Source: Minisyncoccota bacterium (lineage in GTDB: Bacteria; Patescibacteriota; Minisyncoccia; Moranbacterales; GCA-2747515). From it: a stretch of DNA of 27,808 nucleotides. The translations under genes and the position numbers were made by a program. This document shows positions 4,075 through 16,998 of the stretch, piece by piece. How positions within the stretch are numbered: the stretch's first letter is position 1; each line of letters begins with the position of its first letter. The stretch spans positions 1 to 27,808 of the forward strand of contig CALHMM010000017.1 of the NCBI GenBank assembly GCA_938034715.1, in the 5' to 3' direction. The notes below the pieces were generated by a model that had not been told where the DNA came from, did not search any database, and saw nothing but the letters and a program-made list of their open reading frames with translations.

Positions 4075-5172
4075 ATGAAAAGAGTCGTAGATGGCCTGTC
4101 AAAAAATGTAAAAAATACAACAAGCAGGGTCTTTGGAAGTCTTTCCAAAGACATTGGAATAGATTTAGGCACTGCCAACACGCTTGTGTACGTCGCAAAC
4201 AAGGGTATTCTGATTAATGAACCATCCGTTGTTGCCATCAACAAGCGAACAGGGCAAATTCTTGCGATAGGCACAGAAGCCAAGCTCATGGTAGGAAAGA
4301 CACCAGGTCACATCGTCGCTTCTAGACCTCTGGTTGATGGCGTCGTAAGTGACTTCGAAGTCACAGAAAAGATGCTCAAGCACTTCATAGACAAAGTCCA
4401 TGCGCAGTCATTCTCAATACTCTCTCGACCCAGAGTGCTAATCGGTATCCCATCAGGTGTAACAGAAGTGGAAAAACGAGCAGTGATCGATGCAGCAATC
4501 AACGCTGGCGCCAGGGAAGCGTACTTAATCGATGAACCAATGGCCGCATCAATTGGAGCAAGGCTGCCAGTTACAGAACCAGGAGGAAATATGGTAATTG
4601 ATATCGGTGGAGGCACAAGTGAAATTGCAGTAATTTCCCTGGGAGGTGTTGTCACGTCACGATCACTTAGAACGGCAGGTGATGAAATGAACGAGGATAT
4701 CATTCGTTTCTGTAGGGATGAATTTAATATCCTTATCGGTGAAAGGACTGCTGAAGAAGTAAAGATTGAAATTGGAAGTGCATATCCGCTAAGCAAACCT
4801 CTCTCTAAGAAGATCCGCGGGAGGGATCTCATCACTGGCCTCCCCAAAGAAGTGAGCATAAATGATGAGCATGTACGTCAGGCTTTGTCACATTCTGTAA
4901 GGATTATTGTAAATGCAGTAAAGACAATCATTGAAGAAACGCCACCAGAGCTAATATCTGACATTATGCAACAAGGAATCATTCTTGCGGGAGGTGGAGG
5001 ACTAACCAGAGGCTTGGATAAGTTACTAGCAAATGAAACAGGTATACCAGTCAGAATGATGGAAGATTCGCTAACAGCTGTTGTGCGAGGAACAGGGATA
5101 GTTCTAGAAAACTTAGAAGACCTAAAGGAAGTCTTGATAGAAAAAGATTCTACAAGACCATTGAGAAGCTAG
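4075..5172 (+). CDS. mreB: Rod shape-determining actin homolog MreB
   Basis: IGIDLGTANT, GVTEVEKRAV, EPMAASIGA, VIDIGGGTSE, LAGGGGL. ATG 4075 preferred over TTG 4051. Confidence 0.97.
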   Translation: MKRVVDGLSKNVKNTTSRVFGSLSKDIGIDLGTANTLVYVANKGILINEPSVVAINKRTGQILAIGTEAKLMVGKTPGHIVASRPLVDGVVSDFEVTEKMLKHFIDKVHAQSFSILSRPRVLIGIPSGVTEVEKRAVIDAAINAGAREAYLIDEPMAASIGARLPVTEPGGNMVIDIGGGTSEIAVISLGGVVTSRSLRTAGDEMNEDIIRFCRDEFNILIGERTAEEVKIEIGSAYPLSKPLSKKIRGRDLITGLPKEVSINDEHVRQALSHSVRIIVNAVKTIIEETPPELISDIMQQGIILAGGGGLTRGLDKLLANETGIPVRMMEDSLTAVVRGTGIVLENLEDLKEVLIEKDSTRPLRS

Positions 5173-10070: not shown

Positions 10071-12725
10071 ATGGGACTACTATCAAAATTTTTTGGATCC
10101 AATGAGAAGGAGATTCGTAAATCACAACCACTCATTGATGCCGTCAACGCACTCGAGGAAGACATGAAGAAGCTTCCTGATGAAAATTTTGCTACTAAAA
10201 CGAGAGAATTTAAAGACCGCATAGCAGCCGGAGAAAGTCTCGATGATATCCTTCCAGAAGCCTTTGCTCTTGTACGCGAGGCAGCGCATCGGGTCATTGG
10301 AGAACGTCACTATGATACACAAATTCTCGGCGGGATAGTCTTACATAGCGGAAAAATTGCAGAAATGAAGACGGGTGAAGGAAAAACTTTAACCTCTACG
10401 CTACCAGTATATCTCAATGCACTTGAAGGAAAAGGTGTTCACATCGTCACGGTAAATGACTATCTCGCAACACGTGACTGCAATTGGATGGGGAGCGTCT
10501 ATACAAAACTTGGTATCACAACTGCCTGCATTACGCATGAGGGTGGGTTTTTATATGAGCTCAACACGCTAGATACAAATGAAGTAAGTATTGAAAACGA
10601 AAATCTCAAAAGCATATCAAAAAAAGAGGCTTACGAAGCAGACGTAACTTATGGGACAAACAACGAATTTGGGTTTGATTACCTTCGTGACAACATGGCC
10701 ACAAACCTAGAGAGAGTAGTTCAGAGAAAACCACATTTCGCTATCGTGGATGAAGTTGACTCAATTCTTATTGATGAAGCCCGTACACCACTCATCATTA
10801 GTGCGCCAGACGATGAATCAACGCTTCTATACAGCCAATTCGCAAGCATTGTTCCACAACTCAAGCCAGATGATGACTATAGCATTGATGAAAAGGAAAA
10901 AGCTGTTTCTATTACTGACAATGGTATCTCCAAGGTAGAAAAAGCTCTCGGCATAGGGAATATCTACGAGGATGGGAAATGGCACTATGTACATCACCTC
11001 GAACAATCACTCAAAGCACAAGTTATCTTTGAACGAGACAAGGATTATATGGTGCGAAAAGGTGAGGTTATAATTGTTGATGAGTTTACTGGTCGCGCAA
11101 TGGAAGGTCGTCGCTATAGCGATGGCTTGCATCAAGCCATTGAAGCTAAGGAAAAAGTCACAGTACAAAGGGAATCCAAAACATTGGCTACAATTACCTT
11201 CCAAAACTACTTCCGCATGTACGAAAAAATTGCTGGCATGACAGGTACTGCTACAACAAGTGCGGAGGAACTACAAAAAGTATACGAACTCGAAGTAGTA
11301 GAAATTACAACAAACAAACAGATTCAGAGAAAGGACTTACCTGATATAATTTACAAAACAGAAGTAGGTAAATTCGCTGCTATCGCAAAAAAAATAAAGG
11401 AGCTACATGAGAAAGGACAGCCAGTTCTAGTAGGTACTGTAGCCATCGAAAAATCGGAAGCCTTATCAGTTGCTCTAGAGAAAGCACATGTACCACACAG
11501 CGTACTAAACGCAAAGTTTCATGAAAAAGAGGCGGAAATAATTGCTAATGCTGGGAAGAAGTCCTCAGTTACAATTGCTACAAACATGGCTGGCCGCGGT
11601 ACAGATATTAAACTTGGCGAAGGCGTAGTTGAACTTGGTGGTCTATACATCATCGGGACAGAGCGTCATGATGCCAGACGTATTGATAATCAACTACGTG
11701 GGCGAAGTGGTCGCCAAGGTGACCCAGGGACAACACAATTTTATATCTCACTCGATGACGAGTTAATGCGACGATTTGGTGGAGATAAACTCAAAGGAAT
11801 CATGGAAAAACTTGGGCTACCTGAGGATCAGCCAATTCAAAATTCTATTATTTCAAAGCAAATTGAGAATGCTCAGAGCAAAATCGAAGGATTTAACTTT
11901 GATCTCAGAAAACACGTACTACAGTATGATGATGTAATCAACAAGCAGCGAGAAGTCATCTACGCGAGAAGACGAAATATTCTGAAAAACGAGAATGTCA
12001 AGAATGAGTATCTAGATATGATTCGAGATGAAGTCGAGTCTGTTGTAAGCTTTCATGCTGTAGAGGGACAACATAAATGGGACATGCAGAAAATCTACGA
12101 TGATATAACAATTCTTTACCCGCTGCCAGACAATGCAAAAAGTAAATTAGAAGGCATCATCGGAGATCCAAAGTTCGATGAAAAAGAATCGATCGGAGCA
12201 ATGATCGAGTATCTTGTTGGTGAGGCAAAGCGAGAATACGGGGCGAAAGAAGTAGAAATCCCAACTGAGACCATGCGTCTAGTTGAAAGGCAAATTCTTC
12301 TGCAAACCATAGACAGACAATGGATGAATCACATCGACACCATCGATCATCTTCGTCAGGGTATCGGTCTCCGCGGGTACGGACAAAGAGATCCACTCAT
12401 TGAGTTCAAAAGAGAGTCATTTGATCTATTTTCAGGGTTAGTGGGCACCATCCGACATGACACGCTTCGCAGTATCTTCCATGTCGCACCCATTGAAAAA
12501 GAACAAGTTTCCCCAGAAATTGCTACCCCACTAAAACAAAGCGATCTAACATTTTCAGGCGCTGACAACATCGCAGGAAGCGGACCTATTCCTGCACAAG
12601 TAGCCCAGCAAGGGACGCCGCAATCTACTGCACCAGCAACAAGTGAAAAATCCATAGGCCGTAATGAGCCATGCAGTTGCGGATCAGGGAAAAAATACAA
12701 GAAATGTCATGGGAAAGTCGCATAA
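10071..12725 (+). CDS. secA: Preprotein translocase ATPase SecA
   Basis: EMKTGEGKT, YGTNNEFGFDYLRDNM, VDEVDSILIDEARTPLIIS, ATNMAGRGTDIKL, RGRSGRQGDPG, C-terminal SEC-C motif GRNEPCSCGSGKKYKKCHG. Confidence 0.99.
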   Translation: MGLLSKFFGSNEKEIRKSQPLIDAVNALEEDMKKLPDENFATKTREFKDRIAAGESLDDILPEAFALVREAAHRVIGERHYDTQILGGIVLHSGKIAEMKTGEGKTLTSTLPVYLNALEGKGVHIVTVNDYLATRDCNWMGSVYTKLGITTACITHEGGFLYELNTLDTNEVSIENENLKSISKKEAYEADVTYGTNNEFGFDYLRDNMATNLERVVQRKPHFAIVDEVDSILIDEARTPLIISAPDDESTLLYSQFASIVPQLKPDDDYSIDEKEKAVSITDNGISKVEKALGIGNIYEDGKWHYVHHLEQSLKAQVIFERDKDYMVRKGEVIIVDEFTGRAMEGRRYSDGLHQAIEAKEKVTVQRESKTLATITFQNYFRMYEKIAGMTGTATTSAEELQKVYELEVVEITTNKQIQRKDLPDIIYKTEVGKFAAIAKKIKELHEKGQPVLVGTVAIEKSEALSVALEKAHVPHSVLNAKFHEKEAEIIANAGKKSSVTIATNMAGRGTDIKLGEGVVELGGLYIIGTERHDARRIDNQLRGRSGRQGDPGTTQFYISLDDELMRRFGGDKLKGIMEKLGLPEDQPIQNSIISKQIENAQSKIEGFNFDLRKHVLQYDDVINKQREVIYARRRNILKNENVKNEYLDMIRDEVESVVSFHAVEGQHKWDMQKIYDDITILYPLPDNAKSKLEGIIGDPKFDEKESIGAMIEYLVGEAKREYGAKEVEIPTETMRLVERQILLQTIDRQWMNHIDTIDHLRQGIGLRGYGQRDPLIEFKRESFDLFSGLVGTIRHDTLRSIFHVAPIEKEQVSPEIATPLKQSDLTFSGADNIAGSGPIPAQVAQQGTPQSTAPATSEKSIGRNEPCSCGSGKKYKKCHGKVA

Positions 12726-13269: not shown

Positions 13270-13371
13270 CGCACGAAGTACACCAAAAACATCGACAAAA
13301 TCAACACCTAGTACGAATTGTCAAAAGAGGCTATAATACGCAGTATATTATTCACAATTTCGGAAATTTCT

Positions 13372-15108
13372 ATGAAAAATAAACATGTAGTGGGGAAGAT
13401 GCTTTTCCTCATCTTCTTGGTATGCACAGTCGGTGTTCTTGCTTCGGGTAAGATGCCACTTCCGATTACCAATATGCAAAACTGGCTAGACACCTTAAAG
13501 GTTAATCTAGGATTAGATCTACAAGGAGGGCTACATCTTGATTACGAAATTGATTTATCAGACATAGATCCCGCAGATCAAGACGACGCTCTAGCTGCTG
13601 TGCAAGCAGTAATTGAAAGACGTGTTAATGCCATTGGAGTAGGGGAACCAATTGTTCAAATTGCAAATCGAGGACTGGATAAATTTCTTATAGTCGAACT
13701 ACCTGGTGTCAGGAATATTGAGCAAGCGAAAGAGATTATCAAAGAAACGCCATTTCTAGAATTCCGGGAAGAAAGAACGCCAGAAGAAATCACTGCCTAT
13801 TTCGAACCACTAAACACAGAGTCTAAGCAAGGAGCTGATGATGCACTGGCGCGGATAAATAACGGAGAAGATTTTAGCCTCGTACAAAAGGAAGTAGATC
13901 CTTTGGCCATTCTACAAGAATCAGAGAGTGAAGAAAGTAGTGAAAGCCAAAACAAACAGATATTTGTTAAAAAGGGCGTACTCGCTGGAGCTCCAGCAGT
14001 TGAGGCTGTCTTATTTGATGAAGAAGTAGCTCCAAATACTGTATTCCCAGAAATAGTGGAGTCAGAAGTCGCATATCATATCGTCAGAAAAGGTGACATA
14101 AGAGGAGAAGGGGAGGAATTAGAGGTTGGTTATGAATTAATTACATTCATCAAACAAAATCAACGCACAAACCCAGCACAATTATACAAATCTACTGAAC
14201 TAACAGGGGAGTTCCTAGACAAAGCAGAAGTCACTTTTTCACAACAAGGAGCACAGAGACCAGAAGTCTCTATCTTCTTTAATGCCCAAGGTGCAGAGAT
14301 GTTCAAAGATCTCACCGGAAGGTCTATCGGTAAAACGATCGCCATTGCTGTCGATGACCAAATTGTAAGCGCACCTTCAGTCGGAGTTGAATTAGCAGGT
14401 GGACAAGCACAGATCACTGGAAACTTCACAATCGAAGAAGCAACCAATCTCGCAGGCAGACTAAACGAAGGTGCCTTACCAGTACCAATTTCACTAGCGT
14501 CTCAGCAAAGCGTAGAGGCATCACTTGGTGCTCAAGCACTCAACACAAGTCTCAAAGCTGGACTGATCGGACTCGCATTTGTAATGATATACATGATACT
14601 CTTCTACCGTTTCTTTGGATTTATCGCTGCTCTTGCAATTGGATTTTATGCACTTACGCTAATCGCAATCTTCAAGCTCTCCAGCACACTCCCAGCAGGA
14701 CTCTCAATTACCCTGACACTCTCAGGTATAGCAGGTCTGATACTATCCATTGGAATGGCAGTTGACGCAAACATTCTCATATACGAACGGATACACGAGG
14801 AACTGAAGCGTGGCAGGCGATTGCATCACGCCATAGAAGAAGGTTTTTCCCGAGCATGGACAGCCATCAGAGACGGTAATATTTCAACTATTCTCACTTG
14901 TCTCATTCTGACAATCATAGGAACAGGGTTTGTAAAAGGCTTCGCCTTAATTCTGATTATTGGTGTTCTACTTTCGATGGTTACAGCTGTAGTCCTTGTA
15001 AAAATAGTAATCCGAGCTAGTGCTGGTAGTTGGCTTTCCAGTAGGCCATGGCTCATAGCTAGAGGGATTAAGTCAATCGACATTACGCCAGACGATAAAA
15101 AACTGTAA
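13372..15108 (+). CDS. secD: Protein translocase subunit SecD with a large insertion in P1
   Basis: LGLDLQGG, IERRVNAIGVGEP, IVELPG, LNEGALP, ILSIGMAVDANILIYERIHEE. ATG 13372 preferred because TATAAT at 13332-13337 lies inside the longer TTG-start frame. Confidence 0.97.
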   Translation: MKNKHVVGKMLFLIFLVCTVGVLASGKMPLPITNMQNWLDTLKVNLGLDLQGGLHLDYEIDLSDIDPADQDDALAAVQAVIERRVNAIGVGEPIVQIANRGLDKFLIVELPGVRNIEQAKEIIKETPFLEFREERTPEEITAYFEPLNTESKQGADDALARINNGEDFSLVQKEVDPLAILQESESEESSESQNKQIFVKKGVLAGAPAVEAVLFDEEVAPNTVFPEIVESEVAYHIVRKGDIRGEGEELEVGYELITFIKQNQRTNPAQLYKSTELTGEFLDKAEVTFSQQGAQRPEVSIFFNAQGAEMFKDLTGRSIGKTIAIAVDDQIVSAPSVGVELAGGQAQITGNFTIEEATNLAGRLNEGALPVPISLASQQSVEASLGAQALNTSLKAGLIGLAFVMIYMILFYRFFGFIAALAIGFYALTLIAIFKLSSTLPAGLSITLTLSGIAGLILSIGMAVDANILIYERIHEELKRGRRLHHAIEEGFSRAWTAIRDGNISTILTCLILTIIGTGFVKGFALILIIGVLLSMVTAVVLVKIVIRASAGSWLSSRPWLIARGIKSIDITPDDKKL

Positions 15109-16085: not shown

Positions 16086-16466
16086 ATGTTTAACATATTC
16101 AACAAGAAAAAGAAGGATGAAATCCAAATTGAAAAAAAGGAAAAAGTGGACGAGCAAATAAAATCAGCAGAATCCATGATGGGTGGGCAACTACCCGAAA
16201 TTACAGATGAAATGATCGATCAAATGCTAGAAGGAAATCTGCCAGGAATGCCCAAACTAGGGCCTATGCAAAAAATGGCAGTTAAGGGCATAAAAAAAAT
16301 GAGTCCAGACAAGAGGAGAGAGGTGTTCGCTCAGGCAATGGGGAAAATGCAAGAAGATGGTGGAGAGTCAAAAGAGGAAATGCTCAAACAGATTGAACAA
16401 ATGCGAGAGGCAGGACAGCTAAACTCAAAGCAGTACAAGATCGCTAAGAAGAGGCTGGGGTTATAG
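16086..16466 (+). CDS. Met-rich small helical protein with a C-terminal SHOCT-like segment
   Basis: 13 Met in 126 aa by hand count; no Trp, Cys or His; ends LKQIEQMREAGQLNSKQYKIAKKRL; 36 nt after secF. Confidence 0.75.
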   Translation: MFNIFNKKKKDEIQIEKKEKVDEQIKSAESMMGGQLPEITDEMIDQMLEGNLPGMPKLGPMQKMAVKGIKKMSPDKRREVFAQAMGKMQEDGGESKEEMLKQIEQMREAGQLNSKQYKIAKKRLGL

Positions 16467-16596: not shown

Positions 16597-16998
16597 ATGA
16601 AATACCTTTTTATATGCGCAAGTATATTTGTGCTAGCAGGATGCGGCTCCCTCACTAAAAGTGGTGTTGAATCAGACGTTGAAATCGATGCTCCATCAGA
16701 GATCGCAGCACAGAGTGATGAGCTGTCACAACGACAAAATGACGAATTATTCGCACCAGTTGAAGATAATCGGATTAACCTTGAATCTGGCACCACAACT
16801 GAAACTGTTCTAAATATTGAACCTGAGCAGCAAGATAACACTGAATCAGAAAACCCTACCGATCAAATACAAGAGCGCGAAACATCCCAAGTCGATATTA
16901 CACCAAAAGTTGTAGATTCTATCACCAAAAAAGTATCTCCAGTCACAGGACCAGCAATTCCAGAGCAAGAAATGTTGGAGATTCTCAGTAACCAATAG
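16597..16998 (+). CDS. Putative lipoprotein, acidic and probably disordered
   Basis: MKYLFICASIFVLAG-C: basic N-terminus, hydrophobic core and lipobox LAGC (Cys16); mature part rich in E/D/Q/T/P. Confidence 0.7.
   Translation: MKYLFICASIFVLAGCGSLTKSGVESDVEIDAPSEIAAQSDELSQRQNDELFAPVEDNRINLESGTTTETVLNIEPEQQDNTESENPTDQIQERETSQVDITPKVVDSITKKVSPVTGPAIPEQEMLEILSNQ

Follow-up and report, generated by a model that had tools for sequence, protein, structure and literature searches.

The gene X locus and its product

The window analysed here, by which we mean the whole stretch of 27,808 nucleotides from a Minisyncoccota bacterium (contig CALHMM010000017.1), carries a co-directional series of genes in the order secA, a NUDIX gene, secD, secF, a short open reading frame that we refer to as X, a small lipoprotein gene, tyrS, a PDT-like gene, pheS, and pheT. 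X begins with an ATG codon separated by 36 nt from the secF stop codon, and the + strand has no terminator-like site in the secF-X interval or immediately 3' of X. The features that concern us are the following.

10071..12725, + strand: secA, at the head of the co-directional secA-nudix-secD-secF-X block
13318..15108, + strand: secD, a context gene whose product contains an insert of about 125 aa
15132..16049, + strand: secF, directly 5' of X
16086..16466, + strand: coding sequence of X, a 126-aa Met-rich protein, stop codon included (from the ORF list, the sequence, homologues and pN/pS)
16086..16118, + strand: N-terminal hydrophobic-polybasic motif of X, residues 1-11, MFNIFNKKKKD (from conservation and the family consensus)
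16119..16175, + strand: variable charged linker, residues 12-30 (from the alignment; pLDDT 58-63)
16176..16358, + strand: Met-rich helical region, residues 31-91 (from conserved Met columns and predicted AlphaFold2 helices 41-49, 60-70 and 74-92, pLDDT 79-89)
16371..16463, + strand: putative C-terminal SHOCT-like bihelical module, residues 96-126, KEEMLKQIEQMREAGQLNSKQYKIAKKRLGL (from sub-threshold PF09851 matches in relatives and predicted AlphaFold2 helices 96-108 and 114-123)

An earlier note on this DNA had drawn attention to a Met-rich reading frame at 16086-16466 after secF, quoting the segments MFNIFNKKKK at its N-terminus, LPGMPKLGPMQKMAVKGIKKMS in its middle and GQLNSKQYKIAKKRLGL at its end, and all of these are present. 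X is a real gene under purifying selection over its whole length, because comparison with nine orthologues gives a pN of 0.15-0.22 per site while pS is 0.81-0.91 and saturated, and because there are 75 close homologues, which are 91-133 aa long with a mean column identity of 66%. Its Met content of 13 in 126 residues (10.3%) is far beyond the range of its own genome, in which ORFs of 150 aa or more (726 in number) have a mean of 2.4% (sd 1.1%, maximum 7.1%). The enrichment extends to the family, with 8-15% Met in most of 97 members, and among the 31 close homologues aligned M43 and M106 never vary and the conservation of M47, M61, M64, and M72 is 90% or higher; the conservation of Met among homologues on which the earlier note had leaned is thus borne out. 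The protein has a net positive charge, with 25 Lys and Arg residues versus 21 Asp and Glu, and its relatives reach +16. No stretch is hydrophobic enough to form a signal peptide or a transmembrane helix and X should therefore be cytoplasmic, as judged from its sequence.

The family to which X belongs is small. When 1.84 billion representative proteins were searched exhaustively with a profile, with no limits on length, only 23 clusters were recovered, all of proteins of 67-190 aa, and no fused forms were found among them. Scans of X against Pfam and NCBIfam gave nothing above noise, with no Pfam match at E <= 1, and the family profile found only chance matches (E >= 0.86) among PDB sequences. 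Neighbours of X in the ESM Atlas are exclusively unnamed Moraniibacteriota clusters, with no named look-alike.

Four parts of X can be told apart by conservation and predicted structure. The N-terminal motif consists of two hydrophobic residues, the second of which is usually Phe, and then a run of Lys residues, with the consensus M-x-x-x-[FLIM]-F-K-K-K or MWNPFKKK. F5 is invariant in the close family and K7 and K8 are at least 90% conserved, and the motif is also kept in remote members, with examples in the family such as MGITDLFKKKK, MLGKLFKKK, MLKKFFGKKK, MWNPFKKK, MGLLDKFKKKK, and MGITDFFKKKK. When the strict form of this pattern is applied to its own genome, X is the sole real ORF that matches. 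The linker that follows ranges across the family from Lys/Glu-rich to Ser/Gly/Asp-rich and accommodates inserts of up to about 100 aa. The Met-rich region begins with a segment, MMGGQLPEITDEMIDQMLEGNLPGMPK, that is specific to the subfamily of X (in which MPEITDEMIDQMLxGxMPGMPK precedes the Met-rich helices) and continues with the family-wide helices MQKMAVKGIKKM and SPDKRREVFAQAMGKM; the family-wide consensus here is kMnMlQrmAmKk..KMsPeer..lmkKa, of which remote members retain kMnMlQrmAmKk..KMsPeer. The C-terminal module has the family consensus ..Il.qlEeMk.SGQ(m/l)s..QY..aKkrLGL, and within the close family its residues G110, Q116, Y117, and K122 do not vary.

The C-terminal module and its relation to SHOCT domains

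The end of X had been described in the earlier note as SHOCT-like, and the support for this description is indirect. Seven of the 29 family members searched match PF09851 at their C-termini (E <= 10), over profile positions 3-27 of 28, and these matches all end 1-4 residues short of the C-terminus. The best of them scores 26.1 bits (E = 6.8e-6) and the others 14-20 bits, all below the 27-bit gathering cut-off, and X itself gives no match to PF09851 at E <= 1. The tail of X is predicted to be bihelical, with AlphaFold2 helices at residues 96-108 and 114-123 (pLDDT 86-88), and it shares with PF09851 the pattern G-x-[IL]-x-x-x-[QE]-[YF]-x-x-x-K-x-x-L. It also resembles the SHOCT and SHOCT-like bihelical domains (Ravi et al. 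2024) in being a two-helix module of about 28 residues that ends a short protein. We thus describe the tail as SHOCT-like rather than as a proven SHOCT domain, its scores being borderline. By the same borderline measure SHOCT or SHOCT-like small-domain proteins would be the closest known kind to X, from which it differs in its Met-rich helices, its N-terminal polylysine motif, and its sec synteny, none of which is described for them. The link between SHOCT segments and oligomerization, which the earlier note had treated as established, is a hypothesis that the experiments in the original SHOCT paper do not support. A later study in comparative genomics predicts that a variety of proteins are anchored to the inner leaflet of the membrane by SHOCT-like domains (PMC11237479).

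Phyletic range and gene order

A family profile search finds X as a single copy in 37 of the 41 genomes of its own order, in 10 of the 12 families, and the source names of its homologues are Candidatus Moranbacteria or Moraniibacteriota. Three of the four genomes that miss X have contigs that end at or just after secF (no more than about 170 nt beyond), and in G020, one of these three, an X homologue is cut off by the contig end after its first 37 residues. The sole miss of another kind is G029, which looks complete, lacks X, and has a different gene directly 3' of secF. Outside the order, a sample of 199 genomes from across the phylum gave no match to X, and secF has no X-like ORF behind it at any of the 27 loci taken from the other orders of the class.

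Synteny by tblastn places X on the same strand as secF and directly 3' of it in about 27 of 31 genomes of the order. The order secA-nudix-secD-secF-X-tyrS-pheS-pheT is kept where SecF identity is only 44-68%, and the adjacency of secF and X persists even where identity to the window proteins has fallen to 33-40% for X and 44-55% for SecF. In one family (f4, genomes G038 and G027) secD and secF lie on another contig, and X is found directly 3' of secA and is followed by a gene for a P-type cation ATPase; the two loci are L024:4998-5255 on the - strand, about 50 nt after secA, and L022 at about 4198-4428, also on the - strand. In two further genomes X has unrelated surroundings, lying after glyA-folD in one (G031) and elsewhere in the other (G007). 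The linkage with sec genes for which the earlier note had looked is therefore there, beside secF in most genomes and beside secA in two, and it is strong but not absolute, with all instances coming from one clade.

Between X and tyrS the window encodes a 133-aa lipoprotein (16597-16998) with the lipobox LAGC and an acidic low-complexity body. It can be detected in just two genomes, which belong to the same genus, and is therefore an insertion that is either recent or fast-evolving. In other orders the gene that usually comes after secF codes for a protein of about 350 aa (loci L048-L073), which has a sigma-70 region 4-like N-terminus with an invariant ITRERVRQI helix and then about 280 aa of unknown nature. 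We considered that X might derive from this gene and rejected the idea, as hhalign gives a probability of 2% and the orthologue of the longer gene is present in the same genome as X, on another contig (C8:14221-15225).

SecD carries an insert at approximately residues 160-290 in 16 loci from within the order; at this position the 27 loci compared from elsewhere in the class show only a gap of about 20-30 residues. The insert in G029 contains a canonical-looking parvulin motif (DFSSLASEYSQDPGSSDKGGDLDFVKRG). The phyletic range of the SecD insert coincides with that of X, and a single remodelling of the export apparatus in this lineage could account for both, although because this range is a single clade the two do not constitute independent evidence.

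Targeting factors in the genome and across the phylum

The genome that encodes X (953 kb in 109 contigs, 92% complete) has no match to PF02978 (the SRP M domain), PF00448 (the Ffh/FtsY GTPase), or RF00169 (the bacterial SRP RNA, 4.5S), and tblastn with E. coli Ffh and FtsY gives best E values of 1.7 and 0.2, respectively, which are not matches. SecB, the trigger factor N domain, and YajC are likewise without a match in this genome. YidC is present, with matches at C61:5934-6578 and at C104:3-434, the latter at a contig end. The earlier note had suggested that X would be most interesting in a genome lacking ffh/ftsY or secB, and this is what we find, with 4.5S RNA, trigger factor, and yajC also not found.

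This situation is not peculiar to the order in which X occurs. PF00448 gives only short P-loop-type matches in 40 relatives and, at a threshold of E <= 1e-8, is without a match in 121 genomes drawn from the whole phylum, and PF02978 has none in 201 genomes drawn likewise; 14 of 14 control genomes were matched each time. In Parcubacteria neither ffh nor ffs had been detected previously, and a peculiarity of YidC was suggested as compensation (Nelson and Stegen 2015, PMC4508563). The phylogenetic profile against ffh/ftsY loss that the earlier note had proposed as a check therefore cannot link X to loss of SRP, because that loss extends far beyond the lineage in which X occurs: SRP genes are found in none of the 121-201 phylum genomes, and X is confined to one order. 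For the same reason, with SRP genes not found phylum-wide while X is restricted to a single order, X cannot be a general substitute for SRP.

A comparable argument applies to YajC, the usual small partner encoded with secDF, which is a single-pass membrane protein whose gene lies upstream of secD. X resembles YajC (PF02699) in being a small protein encoded in one block with secD and secF, but differs from it in having no transmembrane segment and no Pfam match, in lying 3' of secF, and in that the two do not have complementary distributions. In 201 phylum genomes no YajC match is above the family cut-off, with four matches below threshold, and the proposal that X replaces YajC was rejected as an argument from profiles, since YajC is not above the cut-off across the phylum sample either.

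Structural models and the comparison with signal-sequence-binding modules

AlphaFold2, supplied with the family alignment, predicts X to be all-helical (mean pLDDT 77.8, pTM 0.50), with helices at residues 5-31, 41-49, 60-70, 74-92, 96-108, and 114-123, and the conserved core alone (residues 53-126) gives a pLDDT of 80.3 and a pTM of 0.39. The helices are predicted with fair confidence and their packing is not, and because the pTM values are low no confident hydrophobic groove can be claimed for X. Foldseek searches of the PDB with both the whole and the core models returned nothing with E < 1. Alignment by VIA-align to 48,161 representative chains gave best Z scores of 4.3 for the whole model (41 residues aligned) and 4.9 for the core (rmsd 15.8 Å), which are far under the level that the tool describes as meaningful for helical proteins. 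SRP54, STI1/DP, SecB, and calmodulin-type folds are absent among the Foldseek and VIA-align matches listed for both models, although weak helical likenesses to STI1/DP may exist.

The earlier note had likened X to signal-sequence-binding modules, and we find no support for this resemblance in sequence or in fold. Comparison of the family profile with the E. coli Ffh M domain by hhalign yields a probability of 1.1% over 19 columns, on which basis M-domain homology was rejected. X has no match to the SRP_SPB or STI1 Pfam families at E <= 1, nor are these among the 25 listed of the 70 families matched by 29 family members. There are likenesses to the SRP54/Ffh M domain (PF02978) at a more general level, in that both have Met-rich amphipathic helices and occur in a context of protein export, and the Gly/Pro/Met loop LPGMPKLGPM in the close subfamily of X recalls the M-domain finger loop. 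However, this Gly/Pro/Met segment is missing from remote members of the family, and X differs further from the M domain in having no RNA-binding motif, no NG domain, and no detectable homology. Neither an SRP RNA (RF00169) nor an NG GTPase (PF00448) that could serve as a partner for X is found in the genome, and the exhaustive profile search recovered no fused forms of X.

Discussion

We have described here a small Met-rich protein that is encoded at the end of a secA-secD-secF block in one order of the phylum. The combination of a polylysine N-terminus, Met-rich helices, a SHOCT-like tail, a position behind secDF or secA, and a lineage free of SRP is, as far as our searches show, undescribed in the literature searched. 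The searches described above found no homologue of known function and provide no link of sequence or fold to components of the Sec, SRP, or chaperone systems. We tentatively propose that X is a lineage-specific, membrane-peripheral accessory of the Sec machinery, acting with SecA and/or SecDF, a reading that we regard as plausible while placing it somewhat short of probable.

The proposed role can be outlined as follows. X would be expressed together with the Sec genes and would act at the cytoplasmic face of the membrane, where the SHOCT-like tail and the hydrophobic-polylysine N-terminus may retain it at the inner leaflet or attach it to a partner. A membrane location mediated by the tail is suggested because SHOCT-like domains are predicted to be membrane anchors (PMC11237479). 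Tethering by the N-terminal motif, either to the membrane or to a partner, is suggested because the motif is reminiscent of how SecA and FtsY begin, with a short hydrophobic pair followed by basic residues; E. coli FtsY starts with MAKEKKRGFFSW. The N-termini of SecA and FtsY bind lipids. The SecA of the window itself begins MGLLSKFFGS (10071-10100), which resembles the N-termini MGLLDKFKKKK and MLKKFFGKKK of relatives of X, and this likeness may reflect a shared lipid- or partner-binding motif, or may be a matter of chance in Lys-rich proteomes. We note that where SecA continues with FGS-x-N-[DE]-R, X has an unbroken run of Lys, and that the resemblance is at the level of the motif only.

Between the two ends of the protein, the flexible Met-lined helical faces could offer a pliable hydrophobic surface for a helix of a partner protein or for an unfolded hydrophobic segment, by analogy with the Met-rich surfaces of the SRP54 M domain, which bind hydrophobic segments. 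In a cell in which SRP, FtsY, SecB, trigger factor, and YajC are not found, X could hold Sec substrates or hand them over, or it could tune the activity of SecA or SecDF. Within this proposal, actual binding of signal peptides or transmembrane segments by X would be an unlikely component. A more ambitious version supposes that X is a stand-alone recognition module, free of both RNA and GTPase and tethered to the membrane or to SecA, whose Met-lined helices would capture signal peptides or transmembrane segments and so do some of what SRP, SecB, or trigger factor does elsewhere, in an order that has none of these; we consider this improbable. Several observations weigh against our reading: the synteny, coming from a single order, may be inherited gene order, with X also lying just upstream of tyrS; X has unrelated neighbours in G031 and G007 and is missing after secF in G029; the tertiary arrangement of the models is not confidently predicted and the SHOCT assignment is below threshold; and other lineages of the phylum manage with neither SRP nor X.

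There are several other models to consider. The main rival is that X is a general small SHOCT-type protein, a membrane-proximal or scaffold protein without any role in export, whose position after secF is inherited; we think this somewhat less likely than a Sec-accessory role, and a number of observations speak for it. SHOCT-like modules occur in many unrelated contexts, X is found outside the sec context in the two genomes G031 and G007, it adjoins tyrS in many genomes just as it adjoins secF, and a single clade as the source of all of the observations amounts to one evolutionary origin. However, mere inheritance fits less well with the retention of secF adjacency in 10 of the 12 families despite the divergence of X down to 33-40% identity, nor does it readily explain why, where the block is broken in family f4, X remains directly after secA and not with tyrS. 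A second model is closest to that of the earlier note, with X as a holdase for signal sequences or transmembrane segments, or a targeting factor, that has a Met-lined groove like those of the SRP54 M domain and STI1 and partly replaces SRP, SecB, and trigger factor. The high and conserved Met content on amphipathic helices, the strong Sec synteny, and a genome in which Ffh, FtsY, 4.5S RNA, SecB, and Trigger_N are not found are all in keeping with this, and the absence of SRP in Parcubacteria is an acknowledged open problem (PMC4508563). We nonetheless consider it unlikely, given the hhalign probability of 1.1% against the M domain and the failure to match SRP_SPB or STI1, the lack of a structural match (best Z scores of 4.3 and 4.9) together with the low pTM, and the disparity between SRP genes not found phylum-wide and X occurring in one order only.

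Two further models are less likely. X could be a small basic protein that binds the ribosome, for example at the tunnel exit, or nucleic acid, for example as a regulator, and its excess of Lys and Arg over Asp and Glu (25 versus 21, and up to +16 in relatives), its place next to tyrS-pheST, and the inclusion of nucleic-acid binding among the published hypotheses for SHOCT would agree with such a function; but no ribosomal or RNA-binding family is matched, there is no similarity to helix-turn-helix proteins, and hhalign against sigma region-4-like domains gives 2%, which together leave it a slender prospect. The least credible model, to which we attach almost no weight, casts X as a regulatory monitor of secretion that acts through its nascent chain. 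SecM, VemP, and MifM are of this type, being encoded upstream of the sec gene that they regulate, with an export signal at the N-terminus and an arrest motif at the C-terminus. X shares with them the property of being a small ORF within a sec cluster, but lies downstream rather than upstream of the sec genes, has neither an N-terminal signal or transmembrane segment nor a Pro-containing arrest motif at its conserved C-terminus, is followed by a gene that varies (lipoprotein, tyrS, or P-type ATPase), and is under strong purifying selection along its whole length. We also considered copper-binding Met motifs and set these aside: X has no export signal, and the P-type ATPase beside X in family f4 has Cation_ATPase_N and Cation_ATPase_C domains and no heavy-metal-binding domain.

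The absence of Ffh and 4.5S RNA in Parcubacteria was reported in 2015. A whole phylum apparently manages without the otherwise near-universal SRP pathway, and how membrane and secreted proteins are delivered to SecYEG and YidC in these cells is a question on which X may bear. Its significance is limited by its narrow range, and even if it should prove to be unrelated to export, X would be one of a small number of SHOCT-like proteins with a clear genomic context. The order-specific insert in SecD suggests a lineage-specific rebuild of the export apparatus. X, as a conserved, Met-rich, and probably membrane-peripheral protein that travels with secDF or secA, offers a concrete candidate for a part of the answer that one lineage may have found.
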